A stretch of DNA of 64,000 bases from Acidobacteriaceae bacterium (GCA_043782485.1 JAYWAL010000023.1:38336-102335); one strand, 5' to 3'; positions 15,282 to 22,237 are shown, counted from the stretch's first letter. Notes: generated by a model not told the origin, from the letters alone. A program made the numbers and translations.

Positions 15282-16229
15282 TTACACCGCCGGTGTTTCG
15301 ACTGGTGTTTCGACCGAGGCTTCCGCGGGCGTTTCGACCAGCACAGCGGCCGGAACAACAACCGGAGCCGCCACTACCGGGGCCACTCGTTTGCCGCGTC
15401 CCAGCACTTCTTCCATGCTGATGTCCTCGCCGTCATCACCCACGTAGCCTTCGACAACAGAAGCGTCGTGGGCGTGAATTTCCAGGCCTTCGGCAGGCAC
15501 TGGTTCGGCATCCGCGACACGCTGTTCGTCGGACTGCCCCGCCATGCGTAGCTGCTGTCCCTCCACAATCGACTCGGAAATCTTCGACGTGAATAGACGA
15601 ATCGCGCGCAGCGCGTCATCGTTGCCAGGAATGACGTAGTCGACTTCGCTGGGATCGCAGTTCGTGTCCACTACCGCGACGACTGGAATGCCCAACTTAC
15701 GGGCTTCGCGGACGGCAATCTGTTCCTTGTTCGAATCGACGACAAAAATCGCATCCGGCACGCGGCTCATGTTCTTGATGCCGGCCAGATTCGCCTGGAG
15801 ATGCTTGCGCGCCCGCTCCAGAACAATAACTTCCTTCTTGGGCAGCAACTCGTAGCGGCCATCGGTCGCCATTTCGTCGAGCTCCTTGAGGCGCTTCACC
15901 GACTTCTGGACCGTAACCCAGTTGGTGAGCAAACCGCCGAGCCAACGATTGTTCACATAGAACATGTTGCAGCGCGTGGCTTCTTCGGTGATCGCGTCCT
16001 GAGCTTGGCGCTTGGTTCCGACGAACATGATCGTCTTGCCCTGAGCCGCCAACTCCTGCACGAATTTCGACGCTTCCTTGAACATCTTCAGCGTCTTCTG
16101 CAGGTCAATGATGTAAATGCCGTTCCGTTCTCCGAAGATGTATTCCTTCATCTTGGGATTCCAGCGCTTGGTTTGGTGCCCGAAGTGAACACCCGCTTCG
16201 AGCAATTCCTTCATCGTGATATTCGCCAA
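15282..16229 (-). CDS. rpsB: 30S ribosomal protein S2 with a low-complexity C-terminal extension
   Basis: [43 protein letters not shown] is canonical S2. The roughly 60-aa Ala/Val/Pro/Glu-rich tail is extra. Confidence 0.95.
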
Positions 16230-16330
16230 ATCAACCTCCTATGTTGATCTGCATCCAGAAACGTAAATTTTCCGGATTGCCATTCCCGCACCCGCGCTGT
16301 GAGGCGCGAGATGAATTGAACACCTAAACC

Positions 16331-16406
16331 AGCCATCAGCAGCCAGCTATCAGTTGCCAGTCTTTCCGCTTCTAACTGGTGGCTGACAACTGAAGGCTGA
16401 CAACTG
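16331..16406. repeat. heptad-type CAGC/GCTGACA repeat array with inverted arms
   Basis: Sequence is ...atcagcagccagctatcagttgccag...ctggtggctgacaactgaaggctgacaactg. It fills the rpsI-rpsB intergenic gap. Confidence 0.7.
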
Positions 16407-16409
16407 CTC

Positions 16410-16805
16410 TTATCTCTTGCTGAACTGGAAGCGTTTACGAGCGCCCTTCTGGCCGTACTTCTTGCGCTCTTTGCCACGCGGATCGCGTGAGACCATGCCC
16501 GCAGCCTTGAGGACCTTGCGCAATTCCACATTGAAAACCATCAGCGCGCGGGCAATGCCCATCTTCACGGCATCGGCCTGACCATTCACGCCGCCGCCTT
16601 GCACCGTGGCGATCACGTTGAACGTTCCCGCCGTTTCGCTGGTCGCCAAGGGCGATTTTGCTGCACCGCGTTGCGCGTCGGTCACAAAGTATTCTTCGAA
16701 CGCTTTGCCATTAACCTTGAACTCGCCGCTGCCGGGACGTAAAAACACACGGGCAACCGCCGTCTTGCGGCGTCCCGTTCCGTAATATTGAACTAGTTCA
16801 GCCAT
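16410..16805 (-). CDS. rpsI: 30S ribosomal protein S9
   Basis: Start re-set to ATG 16805 ([20 protein letters not shown]). The C-terminus ...[18 protein letters not shown] is canonical. Confidence 0.95.
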
Positions 16806-16906
16806 GTTTCGATCTCGCCTTGACTGCAAATTTTTGGCTAGACCCGAAGGCCAGCCGCCGCACCCCGATTTATTACTGATTGGTCAATAACAAGTCGGTT
16901 AATTAA

Positions 16907-17341
16907 CTACTTAGCCAATACTTTTGCGACCGGCTTCTGCGCTTCGTGCGGATGCTTGTCGTCGCGGTACACCTTAAGCTTGTCAATCATCTGACCGCCC
17001 ATCTTGGTCTTGGGCAACATGCGGACCACGGCGTCCTTAATGATCGCTTCCGGCTTGTTTTGAATACGATCCTTGTAGGCTTCCGTTCGCAACCCACCCG
17101 GAAAGCCCGTGTAGCGGTGATAAGCCTTCTGCTCGACCTTGGCGCCGGTAACGCGGATCTTGGCGGCGTTGATGACCACAACGTGGTCGCCAACGTCAAT
17201 AAAAGGCGTGTATTGCGGGTTTTCCTTGCCCATCAAAATCAGGGCAACCTGAGAAGCCAGACGCCCGAGCGTCTGTCCTTCCGCATCCACGACAAGCCAC
17301 TTGCGTACGATTTCCCCCGCTTTGGGGAAATAGGTTGACAT
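16907..17341 (-). CDS. rplM: 50S ribosomal protein L13
   Basis: 144 aa. The sequence [25 protein letters not shown]...[10 protein letters not shown] is canonical L13. It lies upstream of rpsI. Confidence 0.95.
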
Positions 17342-17526
17342 CAGATTCTCCTGTAAAAGAAACGAAAAAAGACCGCGGAGTCAGTCCTAGGGAACCCACT
17401 GGGCGCTCAGGCGGACAATCGTTGGCTCTCAAAAGTTTAAGGATAGTGGAAAAAAGGGGCGTTTGTCAACGGGGGCATGGCCTAGCCCCGGCCCAAACTA
17501 CCTGCTCGACTTCCCTGCCCAACGAC

Positions 17527-18075
17527 TTAAAGAAGCGGCTTGACCATTGCTTGAACCGCATCGGTGTATTCAAAACCAATGATTTTTTGGCTTAAAACAC
17601 CTTGGCGGTCGTAGATCAGGGTGGTCGGCAGGCCCTCGATTCCGCCAAATTTCTGCTTCAAGTCCTCGGCGGCCACGGCTAACGGGTAGCGCACGCCGAT
17701 TTTCTTGGCGAACTGTACGGGGTCTTCGGTGTCGGGCATGACATCGAATTTGAAGCCGACGACGGCGAAGCCTCGGGCGGCGTAGAGGTCGGCCAGCTTT
17801 TGGTATCCGGGCATTTCTTTTTTGCAGGGCTGGCACCAGGTGGCCCAAAAATCGATGAGCACGACTTTACCGCGCAGGTCGGCGGAAGTGATGGTTCGGC
17901 CCTGCAAGTCCGGCAAGGTGAATTCCGGCATCTGCGAGCCAATTTCGCCCATAGCTACGGCTGCCTTTTTCGGCGATGGCGGGGAGTTCGCCGAATGCGA
18001 ATTGCATCCGGCGAGTCCCGCCACGGTCAGGCACAACAGGAAGCCGCGTGACATTAGACTTTGAAGTTTCGTCAT
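17527..18075 (-). CDS. TlpA-like periplasmic thiol:disulfide oxidoreductase (thioredoxin fold)
   Basis: Lipoprotein-like signal peptide (...LAGC). Active site WATWCQPCKKEMP. Its ATG directly abuts the TAG stop of the upstream gene. Confidence 0.85.
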   Translation of the reverse strand: MTKLQSLMSRGFLLCLTVAGLAGCNSHSANSPPSPKKAAVAMGEIGSQMPEFTLPDLQGRTITSADLRGKVVLIDFWATWCQPCKKEMPGYQKLADLYAARGFAVVGFKFDVMPDTEDPVQFAKKIGVRYPLAVAAEDLKQKFGGIEGLPTTLIYDRQGVLSQKIIGFEYTDAVQAMVKPLL

Positions 18076-18603
18076 CTATTCCTTCTTCTGAATTTCCAGA
18101 ATCAGCAGCGTCAGCGCGGCCGGGAAGTCTTTCTTTCGCTTCCCTTCCGGCTTTTTGTAAAGCTGCCCGCGAAGCGTGACCTTCGTCGGAGCGCCCGCCA
18201 GGGATTCCAACCCTTTCGAGAGCTCGGTGGGAGAGAACGTGAAAGACCGGTTCGGTTCCACCTGTAGGGCTAGGTTTCCCGATGCGTCTTTGACGATCTT
18301 GCCGCGCGCGAGGATGTCCATCTCGGCGGCGGTCACGCCACTGTCGTAGGTCGCCTTCAAAAGCGCGACGGGATCAATTTGCCCGTCTTCTTTGGGAGTG
18401 ACCTGCACTTTCCCGTCGATCAAACTGACTTCTACATTTTGAACGCCAGACTGGCGTCCTAGGTGCTGTTTCACACCGAAGGCTCAAAAGTTTCAAGTCA
18501 TGCCTTCGACGCGCATTTCAATATGCTTGACTTGCGCTTCAGCCACGGGCACAACCAGAATTGCGCCGAGCAGAAGCAGGAAAGCTGCGGATTTGCGTTG
18601 CAT
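18076..18603 (-). CDS. secreted heavy-metal-associated (HMA) domain protein with two in-frame TGA codons at the CxxC positions (candidate UxxU selenoprotein)
   Basis: ATG 18603 with AAGGAG upstream. The translation is MQRKSAAFLLLLGAILVVPVAEAQVKHIEMRVEGMT-TGA-NF-TGA-AFGVKQHLGRQSGVQNVEVSLIDGKVQV... The TGA codons are at 18493-18495 and 18484-18486. The same frame continues into track ORF 18076..18474. Confidence 0.6.
18441..18459 (-). promoter_or_regulatory. candidate SECIS-like stem-loop
   Basis: The mRNA forms GGACGCCA-GUC-UGGCGUUC (8 bp including one G.U). It starts 24 nt after the second TGA. Confidence 0.35.
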
Positions 18604-18616
18604 TATGATTCTCCTT

Positions 18617-18668
18617 GATAGCTGTCAGCTGTCAGCTATGAGCCGTCAGCTCTTGATAGCTGATAGCC
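18617..18668. repeat. direct heptad array gatagct gtcagct gtcagct atgagcc gtcagct (ctt) gatagct gatagcc
   Basis: 7-nt periodicity read directly from the sequence. It fills the gap between the OMP gene stop (18673) and the HMA gene RBS. Confidence 0.85.
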
Positions 18669-18672
18669 GTTC

Positions 18673-19608
18673 TTAAAGATGCATTCGAAACTGCTGCGTG
18701 ATTCCAAAACTGATATGACGCTTCACGGGCATGAATGTTGCTCCCGCTCCGTGCGCCACATCCCAATCCATGCCTAACCATGCGTGCACTCCCGGACGCA
18801 GGCCAACATAGCTGGTGACCCCGGCTTGCAATTGGTCTCCCCCGCTGCCGCGCTGCGTGACCCCGGCGATGCGGTCGTCTTGCGAATGCAGCCACGTCAG
18901 CACCGGGCCAATGAACCACTCCCGCGCGCCGTTCTTCGACTCATACGGACGGTAGGAGAGCCAGAAACGCGATCCAACTTCACTGCCGAGCCGAGTCGCT
19001 TGCGCTCCCTCCGTTCGCACGAGCGCGTGAAAGTCTTCATCGGCAACCAGCCGCCGAATGTTGAACAGCCCCGTATACGTGCCGTTCGCCGCCAGGAATA
19101 AATCCGTCGAGCCTGAACCCGGCTGCAAGCCGGCGGGCAGCCGGATGCCGGTATCGGCGTTCATGTTCGTGCGTCCGGTTGGCAACTTGGGGCCAAACGT
19201 GACCGATGCCTGCGTCGTACCTCGCGGCGAGTCACGCCGGAAGAAGCGGTACTTCGCCAGCAGCATCACATCCCCGAGTCCCGTTCCCCCAACCGTCGGC
19301 GCGGCTGAGGGGCGATAACGATTCGTCACGATGGGAACTACAACAGCGAAATCCCAATCCTGATGAAATCCCCAAGTGAAATTGAAGTCCCCTTCGTGTG
19401 AGAACGTGGGCCGCGCGGTTCCAGTAATTCCGCCCGGCACGCGCGCGCGGGTGGTGAAGATGGAATTGTAAGAAACGAGCGCACCCCCCGGAAACAATGG
19501 CGGTGCAGTCTCCGGAGCTGGACCCTGCCCCCAAGCGGCAGCCGCGGTCAGCAAAAACAGCGGCAGCCACTGGGCGCATTTTCTACTTTTGGTATTTCCA
19601 AATTTCAC
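18673..19608 (-). CDS. outer-membrane beta-barrel protein (MetA-pathway/transporter-like OMP, tentative)
   Basis: Start re-set to GTG 19608 (GGAGG 8 nt upstream; VKFGNTKSRKCAQWLPLFLLTAAAAWGQ signal peptide). Alternating beta-strand pattern with C-terminal ...ISFGITQQFRMHL. Confidence 0.6.
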   Translation of the reverse strand: MKFGNTKSRKCAQWLPLFLLTAAAAWGQGPAPETAPPLFPGGALVSYNSIFTTRARVPGGITGTARPTFSHEGDFNFTWGFHQDWDFAVVVPIVTNRYRPSAAPTVGGTGLGDVMLLAKYRFFRRDSPRGTTQASVTFGPKLPTGRTNMNADTGIRLPAGLQPGSGSTDLFLAANGTYTGLFNIRRLVADEDFHALVRTEGAQATRLGSEVGSRFWLSYRPYESKNGAREWFIGPVLTWLHSQDDRIAGVTQRGSGGDQLQAGVTSYVGLRPGVHAWLGMDWDVAHGAGATFMPVKRHISFGITQQFRMHL

Positions 19609-19681
19609 AGTGTTTCCTCCCCAAAAAACGACGATTCCAGGCACACGAATGCGTGCCGACGAGAAACGACGGGAGGTCTGG

Positions 19682-20047
19682 CTAGATACGAAGAGGCTGG
19701 AGCGTGGGTGGAGAAAAGACCGGCGGCGCGTGATTGCGTTCGGCAATCGTGCGTTCGGACGACGGAAAGACCGTCATATCCGAGTAGACTGGAAGCACGG
19801 CCAACACCACAACGTTGTGCGATAGCCCGTGCCCAAACGACGGCAGCATAAACGGAGCCTGCGCCGTCGGCATGGTCTGGCAACAATCCATGCCCTGCTT
19901 CGCGTCCATTTGCCCGTGGCGCGCACACTGCATCTCGGCGCAACACCGCATCGCCTGTTCAGGCGTCGTCATGGCCTCGCAGTCGAGCGCGTAGGTAGTG
20001 AGCGCGACTACCAGCAACCACTGCAGAGTGATGTGAGCGAAACGCAT
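19682..20047 (-). CDS. small secreted Cys/Met/His-rich protein
   Basis: Signal peptide, then AMTTPEQAMRCCAEMQCARHGQMDAKQGMDCCQTMP. It is the first gene of the apparent operon with the OMP, HMA and TlpA-like genes. Confidence 0.5.
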   Translation of the reverse strand: MRFAHITLQWLLVVALTTYALDCEAMTTPEQAMRCCAEMQCARHGQMDAKQGMDCCQTMPTAQAPFMLPSFGHGLSHNVVVLAVLPVYSDMTVFPSSERTIAERNHAPPVFSPPTLQPLRI

Positions 20048-20228
20048 CCAGCTAAACCGTAGACGGGGCAGACGGGCGGTGTCAAGAGCGCGGGCATGAT
20101 CCTCAGCCCAGCGGAGTTCCGGTTATTCACCTTTGACCCTATTTAGGATGAAAAATCCAGACTATCTTGAGGCGCGTCGACTCCGACAGCCGACAGCCGG
20201 AGGCGCATAACGGACAGACTGAAAGCGA

Positions 20229-20882
20229 TTAGTTGGCACTTCCCTTAGCGTGTCCGTTGTTGCCACCAGTTCCCTTTGTATTGATTGCCATACGCTGATA
20301 GCTGATGGCAATGCTCGACGCGTTACAGTGAGCGACGATTGCATTGTCGAGCGTATAACTGCCTCCGGGATTACGCCCACCTTTGACGATGACGCCCTTA
20401 ATTGGGGCACCATCCACTAAAGCGTTAATGGGGCAACCGGAGGATCCCGAGTTGGTACCGCCGGGGTTTGAGAAATACAAGGTCACTTCGCCCGCGCCGG
20501 AGGGTGCGATCGTCTGAGGAGAAGACGCTGCCAAACTCCCAGCTGTCTTCTTTGCGCTTTCAGTAATACCGCAAGAGGAACTGTTGCACATGGTAAAGAC
20601 TTCGCTCTTGGCAGACTTGAAACCGGCCGCGGTCAGTTGGTACGGACCTTGCGAAGACGTAACGGTCGACAGACCATCGGCGCTCTTCGTGATTTCTCCC
20701 CAACTGAATGACAATTTGTCATCGCAGTTTTGATTGCTGGCACAGTCCGGTACTGGGGTCGTAGAGCTTTTTGGGGCCTGCGCACGCGTCATAGTGCCAT
20801 CCGTTTGTGCAAGTGCCGTAACGTTCAGGATGCAGAAGATACCTGCCAAAACCAGCAAGGCAATCGAATCATGCTTTTTCAT
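20229..20882 (-). CDS. hypothetical secreted protein
   Basis: 217 aa with signal peptide MKKHDSIALLVLAGIFCILNVTALA. Ser/Gly/Thr-rich with scattered Cys. No family recognised. Confidence 0.5.
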   Translation of the reverse strand: MKKHDSIALLVLAGIFCILNVTALAQTDGTMTRAQAPKSSTTPVPDCASNQNCDDKLSFSWGEITKSADGLSTVTSSQGPYQLTAAGFKSAKSEVFTMCNSSSCGITESAKKTAGSLAASSPQTIAPSGAGEVTLYFSNPGGTNSGSSGCPINALVDGAPIKGVIVKGGRNPGGSYTLDNAIVAHCNASSIAISYQRMAINTKGTGGNNGHAKGSAN

Positions 20883-21133
20883 ATTCTCTCCTGGAAAATT
20901 CAGTGATTATTCAGCGCTGGACTGGGCATGACCCGAACAGGGTGGGGCGGACTACCAAGAGCTTGATAAATTCCTGCCTCCCAATTCAATGAATTCCATG
21001 GCGCGACGGAAAGCGACGTCAATGCAACTGTGCTTGTGGGTGCCCAGCAAGAGAATACTCCGCTTGCGCGCGACCGGTATAAGGCGGAGTAACTAATTCG
21101 ATACAGCAAAAACCGAAACACGAATGCCGCCCC

Positions 21134-22237
21134 CTATTCGTAAGCCAACGCGTCAATCGGGTCTTTCCGGGCGGCTTTGACTGCTGGGTAGATTGCGCCC
21201 AGTAGCGCTCCGATCAGGGCAATCACCGACGCGCGCGCGATCCAGTCCGCCGTCAGCAGCATTGGAACCAAGTGAAAACGGTGCGTTAACAGGAACTTGG
21301 CGAAGTAGCTGATGGCGATCCCGAGCGCGATCCCGGCCACGGCCAGCAACATCGTCTCGCGCAGGATCACGTTCAAAATGTAACCGCGCGAGGCACCCAT
21401 CGATTTCAGAATTCCGATTTCGCGTGTGCGCTCCATCACCGCCGCATACATGGACTGGAAGATCACCATGAAGCCGATCACCATGGCAATGCCGACGACG
21501 ATCTTGATAAACAGATTAAAGCCGGGCAGGTGTTCCGGCGTCATCAAGGCCAGGAATTCGGTCATGGAACGCACCGAATAGGTTTCCATTCCCGGAGTGC
21601 TCTTGACCGCTTTGACGACCTCATCGGCATTCCTGGGGTCGTCGAGGTGTACGTAAAACACCGAAACCTTGCCAGCCGCACCGGTTAAATCCTGCATGGT
21701 GGAGAGTTGCAGGAAACGCCGCGCGCCTTTGCCGTGCTCCACAATTCCGCAAATGCGGAATTGGTTGTTCAGTACTTCCACGGAGTCGCCGATCCTGGAA
21801 TGGTGGTCGCTGGCAAACTTATCGTCCACGATCATGTCATTGGCATTTTGAAACGGCCCCCCGGCAAGGTAGGTGAACGGGCTACCCAAACTTTCATAGC
21901 TAGCCAGGTCAATGCCGTAGATGACTTCCAGCGAGCCAGCATTAATCAGCTGCCACATGATGGGAGAGACCACCGTCACGTGCGGCAATTTGGCCACCAC
22001 CTCGCCAATCTTGACCGACATCGGCGCCGTGGTAAACCCGACCAGATTGCTGGACCCCGGCGGCTGCACCATCAGGTCCGCGCCAATGCCCGCCTGACGC
22101 GTCTTCGAGTCGTTGAGCATGCCATAGGAAAAACCCGCAATCAGCAGAATGAGCGCGACTTCCATGGCAATGGCCAGAATGCTGATGAGGGTTCGCAGCG
22201 GGCGATGAACGAAATTCGAGATGACAAGATGGTTCAT
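21134..22237 (-). CDS. ABC transporter permease, FtsX/MacB/LolC-like
   Basis: 367 aa. N-terminal TM helix (FVHRPLRTLISILAIAMEVALILL), a periplasmic domain, then a C-terminal FtsX-type 3-TM domain with REIGILKSMGASRGYI. No ATPase partner is adjacent. Confidence 0.8.
   Translation of the reverse strand: MNHLVISNFVHRPLRTLISILAIAMEVALILLIAGFSYGMLNDSKTRQAGIGADLMVQPPGSSNLVGFTTAPMSVKIGEVVAKLPHVTVVSPIMWQLINAGSLEVIYGIDLASYESLGSPFTYLAGGPFQNANDMIVDDKFASDHHSRIGDSVEVLNNQFRICGIVEHGKGARRFLQLSTMQDLTGAAGKVSVFYVHLDDPRNADEVVKAVKSTPGMETYSVRSMTEFLALMTPEHLPGFNLFIKIVVGIAMVIGFMVIFQSMYAAVMERTREIGILKSMGASRGYILNVILRETMLLAVAGIALGIAISYFAKFLLTHRFHLVPMLLTADWIARASVIALIGALLGAIYPAVKAARKDPIDALAYE

Follow-up and report, generated by a model that had tools for sequence, protein, structure and literature searches.

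CutF of Rhodobacter capsulatus (cutFOG) is followed by a stem-loop that shields the Shine–Dalgarno (SD) sequence of the next gene, and CutF-like proteins are recognized by a set of rules, namely a length below 150 amino acids, a signal peptide, a pair of prolines among the final 15 residues and, at a distance below 1000 nt, a next gene in the same direction (PMC9973294). CruR of Bordetella pertussis (Bp2923; DUF2946, PF11162) carries a CXXC motif and, 45 ± 2 residues further on, the motif RAPP; both motifs and their spacing are needed for copper control (PMC9426467). Among envelope proteins, the COG4313/PF13557 channels (Pput2725, TcpY) are 12-stranded, with the N-terminal segment in the lumen, and 270–320 residues long when mature (PMC4493636), TlpA reduces the copper-binding cysteines of CoxB (reviewed in PMC7558416, where the action of TlpA on ScoI is named only in the title of a cited reference), and HMA-domain selenoproteins of the NF041115 type are already listed in reviews. 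Here we describe a four-gene operon in the genome of an Acidobacteriaceae bacterium that has one gene of each of these kinds: a CutF-like leader, a COG4313-like barrel, an HMA selenoprotein and a TlpA-like reductase. It lies on the minus strand of a 64 000-nt stretch (GCA_043782485.1, JAYWAL010000023.1:38336–102335), which is called the window below, with positions counted from its first letter. Its genes and control elements are, in the direction of transcription:

20056–20085, minus strand: sigma-70-type promoter (TTGACA, 18 nt, TACGGT), ending 8 nt before the leader ATG
19682–20047, minus strand: leader open reading frame (ORF), 121 amino acids, a candidate nascent-chain metal sensor
19670–19677, minus strand: anti-SD arm ACCUCCCG, beginning 5 nt past the leader stop and partner of 19615–19622
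19615–19622, minus strand: SD arm of the barrel gene, GGGGAGGA, sequestered in a predicted helix
18673–19608, minus strand: outer-membrane β-barrel gene, 311 amino acids (mature form about 284), with a GTG start after GGGGAGGA
18604–18672, minus strand: spacer between the barrel and HMA genes, 69 nt
18076–18603, minus strand: gene for an HMA(UxxU)-OB selenoprotein, 175 amino acids, predicted to be periplasmic
18484–18495, minus strand: two selenocysteine (Sec) codons, TGA AAC TTT TGA, being codons 37 (18493–18495) and 40 (18484–18486)
18441–18459, minus strand: hairpin resembling a selenocysteine insertion sequence (SECIS), GGACGCCAGUCUGGCGUUC, 8 bp with a GUC loop
17527–18075, minus strand: gene for a TlpA/ResA-like thioredoxin lipoprotein, 182 amino acids

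The host is a soil acidobacterium, and the operon probably specifies a hitherto undescribed system of the cell envelope that handles copper or some other sulphur-loving metal. On balance we consider it likely that the operon is complete in itself, was acquired horizontally, serves a thiophilic metal in the envelope and carries a nascent-chain leader, with copper as the likeliest metal and mercury or silver as possible ones. Literature searches returned no description of the four-gene combination or of the peptide family, in agreement with the original prediction, made from the DNA alone, in which this exact combination was not recognized as a described system. That prediction had also set out four co-directional, tightly spaced genes, all with export signals, and each ORF was found on the minus strand where it had been placed.

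The operon is strongly conserved as a unit. Using the barrel protein as query and one genome per species, we retrieved 36 loci from other genomes, mostly metagenome-assembled genomes of Terriglobia. In all 32 loci spanned by a single contig the peptide gene was followed by those for barrel, HMA protein and TlpA, in this sequence and with one strand coding for all four, which is the co-occurrence in related genomes that had been proposed as a check. Gaps between the genes were short or nil across loci (about 75 nt from peptide to barrel, about 12 nt from barrel to HMA gene, and 0 or −4 nt from HMA gene to tlpA), the HMA stop abutting or overlapping the tlpA ATG in most of them; the expectation of a tightly coupled operon with four exported products was thus borne out, signal peptides being called here and below by inspection of the hydrophobic core and cleavage site. 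Clustering of every flanking ORF of the 36 loci gave no further conserved neighbour, and Pfam searches of 120 flanking ORFs found no family in more than four loci; a Cation_efflux gene (cation diffusion facilitator, CDF) flanks 4 of the 36, possibly in synteny. Because the four genes co-occur in the absence of any other conserved neighbour, the set is a free-standing cassette. An Rfam search over positions 16000–22000 gave no relevant match. The barrel-to-HMA spacer of the window is 69 nt long, versus 8–26 nt in the orthologues, and consists of the 7-nt repeat units GCTATCA and GCTGACA of this genome, which suggests that a repeat family invaded the operon after its acquisition.

The cassette is rare. 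Among 400 evenly drawn Acidobacteriota genomes a single other one (G120) held an orthologue, at 55% identity, giving a frequency of about 0.5% of the sampled Acidobacteriota; no orthologue was present in 33 sampled genomes of the same family, nor was the cassette found in four genomes of the same genus. Four cassettes (L038, L042, L049 and L051) were on contigs assigned by binning to Verrucomicrobiia, Eremiobacterota (Cybelea), Limnocylindrales and Dormibacterota, and these copies reflect either mis-binning or transfer between phyla. Two genomes held the whole cassette in duplicate at separate sites (L019 and L022 in CAWESU01; L016 and L028 in CAWEVR01).

The third gene had been predicted to encode a Sec-HMA protein with TGA-xx-TGA, and its reading as a selenoprotein with two Sec residues has held up well. 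Both TGA codons were present in 36/36 orthologues (the window, the loci of the barrel search and G120), and with these codons read through the protein scored 33.3 bits against Pfam PF00403, above the cut-off of 24.8. The metal loop reads GMT-U-NF-U and follows the first strand, with Sec at both cysteine positions in all 36 orthologues, whereas distant relatives have CPFC there. A profile built from 35 orthologues matched metal-binding domains of copper ATPases, CopZ and MerP in the PDB. The C-terminal domain (residues 96–175) was modelled as an OB fold (pLDDT 77; topology β1-β2-β3-α-β4-β5); Foldseek returned generic OB folds only, all at E ≥ 0.035, and conserved metal ligands are absent from this tail. 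In public annotation the gene is split or shortened, into pieces of 35 and 132 amino acids, and the HMA-OB family, fused relatives included (see below), is consequently invisible in databases.

Decoding of the two UGA codons as Sec would depend on the hairpin GGACGCCAGUCUGGCGUUC downstream of them. It was nearly invariant in the 36 sequences, wobble positions included, whereas wobble sites further downstream vary, and such constancy is the signature of a SECIS. The changes seen were a few single-base substitutions, either in the loop or compatible with pairing, apart from L042 with two broken basal pairs; since the hairpin barely varies, compensatory changes were not available. Its fold z-score was −2.75, and the distance to its loop is about 35 nt from the second UGA and about 44 nt from the first. 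The latter distance is greater than published bacterial SECIS search windows are known to allow. The two Sec codons, 9 nt apart, apparently share this one hairpin (18441–18495, minus strand), and a second small hairpin (GG.GU/AC.CC, loop GAAACA) stands between them and it. The genome encodes selB (360 bits), selA (539 bits) and tRNA-Sec (78 bits); the tRNA-Sec gene is on the window's own contig (G000:C23:18155–18247), about 20 kb before the window start. Co-occurrence of selB was discarded as support for Sec, being uninformative when 77% of the sampled Acidobacteriota (117 of 151) have a selB match that passes the cut-off. About 18 of 400 sampled Acidobacteriota held other HMA-domain matches with two in-frame TGA codons (e.g. 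GMTUPLU, GMQUSLU), which suggests that double-Sec HMA proteins are common in the phylum.

The second gene had been called an outer-membrane β-barrel, an assignment consistent with its signal peptide and with the match of 5 of 34 orthologues to PF13557 (best E 5.6e-10; about 70% identity to the window protein, within an overall range of 66–74%). Close homologues carry precomputed PF13557 annotations, and more than 2000 homologues are found in databases. A PDB sequence search with the barrel profile gave no match. On these sequence similarities, the barrel is best described as a putative distant relative of the COG4313/PF13557 channels.

The last gene likewise proved to be what had been suggested, a TlpA-like lipoprotein with a WCQPC active site whose ATG directly follows the HMA stop: the start was confirmed, a LAGC lipobox is present, and the protein matches AhpC-TSA/Redoxin (AhpC-TSA E 4.4e-22), with WC[QA]PC invariant in 34 sequences. 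It falls below the equivalog cut-offs for TlpA (NF047696, 81 against 230 bits) and ResA (90 against 170). A TlpA-like protein is the invariable partner of the HMA protein, both in the cassette family and in the fused sister family described next, and may reduce the HMA site. One gene with a DsbD_TM domain (CcdA/DsbD-type) is present in the genome and could supply TlpA with electrons. A supposed restriction of TlpA to the company of Sec-type HMA genes was dropped, three UxxU relatives (L069–L071) having no TlpA gene within 7 kb.

That HMA protein and barrel act together, as had been proposed, is indicated by a sister family of Blastocatellia/Pyrinomonadaceae (more than 120 clusters), in which a signal peptide, an HMA domain (C-G-N-U, with one Sec), an OB domain, a linker and a barrel form a single frame of 500 amino acids. 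HMA-OB is here joined to the N-terminus of the barrel (e.g. L067, 5957–7450, minus strand; L077, 7875–9371; proteins P0283–P0402), and a TlpA-like gene lies downstream of the fusion in 4/4 loci examined. Next to P0302, directly downstream of the fusion gene, a TlpA-like Redoxin domain is itself fused to Cupredoxin_1. The HMA-OB–barrel fusion argues for docking of HMA-OB on the barrel's periplasmic face and for TlpA as a functional partner. Public calls of the fusion genes begin past the TGA (about 450 amino acids, plus a separate ORF of 40–52 amino acids), so that the HMA half is lost. More distant relatives, with a Cys-type HMA-OB protein and an adjacent barrel, occur between merC and merR, beside a MerR gene, beside genes for P-type ATPases (two, of which one has YHS and HMBD domains), beside the gene of a Met-rich protein, and near an OEP gene and a multicopper oxidase gene. 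At the first of these sites (L055, G131:C73, 4644–8132) merC is followed by HMA(CPFC)-OB, a PF13557 barrel (59 bits), an NHL-repeat protein and merR; an NHL protein follows the barrel in L054 (G225) also. The contexts of these relatives (MerR, MerC, P1B-ATPases, the TlpA–cupredoxin fusion and multicopper oxidase) fit the role in handling a thiophilic metal that had been put forward for the operon.

As to direction, clearance of the metal out of the periplasm and the cell seems to us likelier than uptake, since an accessory, mobile module is concerned whose relatives lie beside regulators of metal excess and efflux pumps. For uptake, the barrel would admit copper and the docked diselenolate HMA site would act as a sink of very high affinity, from which Cu(I) would pass to factors that assemble cuproenzymes, TlpA serving as it does in CuA biogenesis. 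The best-studied role of TlpA is indeed cuproenzyme assembly, operons headed by CruR are acquisition systems, Nramp genes lie near two loci, and a passive channel leading to a tight periplasmic trap is thermodynamically natural for import. An acquisition system sits less well with a module that is this rare and mobile (about one in 200 sampled genomes, and not found in four congeners), whose relatives adjoin genes for efflux ATPases and for activators of the MerR type, a class responsive to metal excess, and to which no inner-membrane importer and no Sco or PCuAC gene is linked; we regard uptake as the less probable direction. Clearance has difficulties of its own. On physical grounds a passive channel with a tight-binding trap fits uptake equally, and the module has no inner-membrane transporter, pump or regulator, which leaves export without an evident source of energy.

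The first gene encodes a small protein with a hydrophobic N-terminus and an AxA cleavage site (AYA|FDC), both called by inspection. In the window it has a CC-x4-C-x13-CC cluster, a 49-amino acid spacer, HAPP (residues 106–109) and a 12-amino acid tail ending in PLRI. All six cysteines are invariant in 34 sequences. The spacer from the second CC pair to H-[A/D/G/S]-P-P measures 48–50 amino acids in 34/34 orthologues and in 106 of 116 full-length representatives of the wider family (338 clusters by profile search), and the tail after the two prolines is 12 amino acids long in 94 of the 116, ending in PLRI or a close variant. Column identity is 0.48 in the spacer versus 0.93 in the motifs. The protein fits the CutF-like rules (121 amino acids, signal peptide, prolines at residues 108 and 109, co-directional next gene 73 nt away), and the SD-shielding stem-loop of CutF has its equivalent in the helix formed by 19670–19677 and 19615–19622. 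The orthologue consensus of this helix is mostly CCUCCAG for the anti-SD arm and mostly CUGGAGG for the barrel SD. Across 34 sequences 84% of cells were paired, versus 40–60% when the partner was slid, compensatory changes occurred at 6 of 8 pairs (at one position, for instance, 21 sequences have C-G and 11 have U-A), and none of 500 shuffles reached the observed covariation. The helix closed the minimum free energy fold in 6/6 sequences folded singly. RNAalifold on the automatic intergenic alignment predicted no pairs; the helix was seen only by naming and counting pairs and in the single-sequence folds.

Upstream, a promoter of the form TTGACt-17/18 nt-TAnnnT was found in 27 of 29 loci, one of the remaining two having a weaker −10 box and the other none. 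The −10 box ends 6–9 nt before the leader start codon in 25 of 28 loci, and the leader mRNA is therefore leaderless or nearly so. In the G120 variant the barrel, HMA(UxxU) and TlpA genes are accompanied by a divergent LysR gene and the leader peptide is missing. By analogy with the two studied systems, the Cys-rich first product is most likely a CutF/CruR-like regulatory leader.

The original prediction had instead seen a secreted Cys/Met/His-rich peptide with soft-metal-type ligands, and had paired it with the barrel for structure prediction. A cargo or ligand peptide that works with the barrel is probably not what it is: CutF-like rules apply to the protein, the anti-SD arm starts 5 nt past its stop, and a LysR gene takes its place in the 55%-identical variant. 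Such a reading would make the product a stable secreted metallophore- or metallothionein-like protein working with, or passing through, the barrel. Six invariant cysteines together with His and Met are more than CruR needs, the signal peptide is conserved, and the COG4313 relatives include FapF, a polypeptide secretion channel. Set against this are a spacer whose length is kept while its sequence drifts, an arrest-like tail, the leaderless start, the anti-SD arm directly past the stop, the absence of the peptide not only from G120 but from all fused and distant forms, where a transcription factor is found instead, and the fact that neither CutF nor CruR is detectable as a mature protein. A stable secreted product thus appears unlikely, and the combination of architecture, helix covariation, leaderless promoter and regulator swapping makes a cis-acting regulatory role much more likely than one as cargo or ligand.

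Copper is favoured as the metal because leaders of the CutF/CruR kind are tied to copper in every studied case, because the documented clients of TlpA are copper sites, and because of the contexts of the relatives. Mercury would make the system MerP-like, the UxxU HMA protein scavenging periplasmic Hg(II) and the barrel serving as its entry or exit. Selenolates have an extremely high affinity for Hg(II), the GMTxxxC-type loop resembles that of MerP (TIGR02052, 37 bits), one Cys-type relative lies between merC and merR, and UxxU proteins of NF041115 are labelled ‘putative mercuric reductase’ in reviews. However, neither the conserved neighbours nor the 120 flanking ORFs searched at the 36 loci included merA, merT, merR or merC, leader type and TlpA both point to copper, the fused family has cupredoxin and multicopper oxidase as neighbours, and the metagenome assemblies that yielded the loci are of ordinary soils; we think a dedicated mercury system doubtful. 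A redox relay free of metal, passing reducing power from CcdA through TlpA and the UxxU protein to the outer membrane or surface (e.g. against oxidants, selenite or tellurite), is very improbable: UxxU and CxxC are redox motifs too, TlpA is a reductase and most predicted bacterial selenoproteins are redox proteins, but the fold is HMA and not thioredoxin, the motif is part of the canonical metal loop and the relatives keep company with metal genes.

Returning to the preferred reading of a copper- or soft-metal clearance module, its working can be pictured as follows. Metal binding to the Cys cluster of the nascent, co-translationally exported leader, together with the arrest-like HAPP…PLRI tail, would modulate ribosome occupancy of the leader; ribosomes at the leader 3′ end would open the helix and so turn on translation of the module. 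The OB domain would dock the diselenolate HMA site at the periplasmic mouth of a 12-stranded COG4313-like channel, and the TlpA lipoprotein, fed by the CcdA/DsbD-type protein, would re-reduce the easily oxidized Sec pair. A bolder version is a redox-powered outer-membrane metal gate, in which the diselenolate of HMA-OB, docked on a passive 12-stranded barrel, binds the metal, oxidation of Sec releases it through the barrel, TlpA resets the site with cytoplasmic reducing power received through CcdA, vectorial transport is thereby driven across a membrane that lacks an energy source, and the nascent-chain sensor switches the module on from a leaderless mRNA; this we rate as decidedly unlikely.

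Several observations weigh against the proposed identities and the leader model. The barrel protein of the window had no Pfam match at E ≤ 0.1, and its AF2 model, made from a 34-sequence alignment of about 70% identity, was strand-rich but of low confidence (pLDDT 43.5), too poor to confirm the fold. The HMA protein stayed below the equivalog cut-offs of MerP (TIGR02052, 37.4 against 92.55), UxxU_metal_bind (NF041115, 35.1 against 95) and CopZ_AFE_1862 (47.2 against 85), and the flanks of the 36 loci showed no enrichment of metal genes beyond the CDF gene in four. PF11162 (DUF2946) had no match at the locus up to E 10 and matched 0 of 34 orthologues, by which membership of the leader in that family was ruled out. 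The leader motif is HAPP, not RAPP, and sits 36 nt before the stop, so that a ribosome pausing on it would fall short of the anti-SD arm. Either the relevant pause may be at the stop codon, where PLRI would occupy the peptidyl-transferase centre while HAPP is close to the tunnel constriction, or the helix may be plain translational coupling, gated by the number of ribosomes that pass HAPP.

If the reading is correct, the operon would add a new arrangement for soft metals in the envelope, consisting of a small outer-membrane channel with a metallochaperone of its own, docked or fused, and a reductase dedicated to the system. The phylum concerned is dominant in soils and largely uncharted in its metal biology. 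It would also extend nascent-chain metal sensing of the CutF/CruR type to Acidobacteriota, with a peptide family unrelated in sequence and on a leaderless mRNA. The HMA-OB protein offers a natural case of two selenocysteines as predicted metal ligands in an exported protein. Selenols remain deprotonated at low pH, and this may be a reason for periplasmic Sec in bacteria of acid soils.

The position of the operon directly upstream of rplM-rpsI had been remarked on as an odd place for an accessory module. The position is real in this genome but is confined to it, and the oddity is that of a lineage-specific insertion between ftsX and rplM. A lipoprotein gene, ftsX, rplM and rpsI are contiguous in one genome of the same genus and two of the same family, with ftsX–rplM gaps of about 150–240 nt. 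Two further features of the window belong to the insert:

17471–21134, no strand assigned: DNA inserted relative to the ancestral ftsX–rplM junction, comprising the operon and a gene for a secreted protein of 217 amino acids (from BLAST against same-genus and same-family genomes)
20229–20882, minus strand: that gene, unrelated, encoding 217 amino acids without Pfam match

Because relatives keep ftsX adjoining rplM, the rplM neighbourhood is an insertion site and does not reflect a functional link to the ribosomal genes. The 217-amino acid gene stands beside no other cassette and has a GC content at third codon positions of 0.57 versus about 0.7. Overall GC content was rejected as a mark of the insertion (58.2% versus 58.6%, no difference). 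The ftsX–rplM region (17341–21134 in the window) is a site of repeated insertion in the genus: it is empty in G401 (L074) and holds a gene for a ParA-like protein of 378 amino acids in G402 (L073, 8148–10000).

Compared with known systems, the cassette resembles CusF–CusCBA and Cop/Pco in pairing a periplasmic soft-metal chaperone with an outer-membrane exit or entry protein, but it has no RND pump, membrane-fusion protein or multicopper oxidase, its chaperone is an HMA-OB selenoprotein and its outer-membrane component is a small barrel of the monomer type. From mer operons it differs in that merC and merR stand beside the HMA gene in one distant Cys-type relative only. With the HMA metallochaperones MerP and CopZ (PF00403) and with NF041115 it shares the HMA fold and the GMTxxxx loop, and with NF041115 also Sec at both ligand positions; relative to NF041115, the window protein is about 100 amino acids longer, has a signal peptide and a C-terminal OB fold, and always comes with a barrel and TlpA. 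The thioredoxin is like TlpA of Bradyrhizobium and ResA/CcmG in being a membrane-anchored periplasmic thioredoxin fold with WCxPC, encoded beside the gene of a Cu-type metal-site protein, whereas, compared with Bradyrhizobium TlpA, its presumed client is a diselenide or selenylsulfide site and cytochrome oxidase genes are not linked. The barrel agrees with COG4313 channels in its signal peptide, a mature length of about 284 amino acids that is within the family range, and weak PF13557 matches among its orthologues; known members are linked to hydrophobic substrates, whereas this one is linked, and in the sister family fused, to a metal-binding domain.

The closest parallels are those of the leader. 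Like CruR, it has an export signal, a Cys motif, a spacer of fixed length (45 amino acids in CruR, 49 ± 1 here) and a near-C-terminal xAPP, and it heads an operon for metal homeostasis; it differs in having HAPP with a 12-residue tail and CC…C…CC, as against RAPP with three residues and CXXC, and an intergenic region of about 73 nt with an SD-sequestering helix, as against 162 nt with Rho-dependent termination. Like CutF, it is the product of the first gene of its operon, is shorter than 150 amino acids, and has a Sec-pathway signal peptide, a Cys metal motif, terminal prolines and an SD-shielding stem-loop. There is no detectable sequence similarity between the two, however, and the cysteine pattern is CC-x4-C-x9–13-CC in the leader and CxxxC in CutF. 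The cassette mRNA, moreover, is leaderless, and the genes downstream encode an outer-membrane barrel, a Sec-containing HMA protein and TlpA, where the CutF operon encodes a multicopper oxidase.

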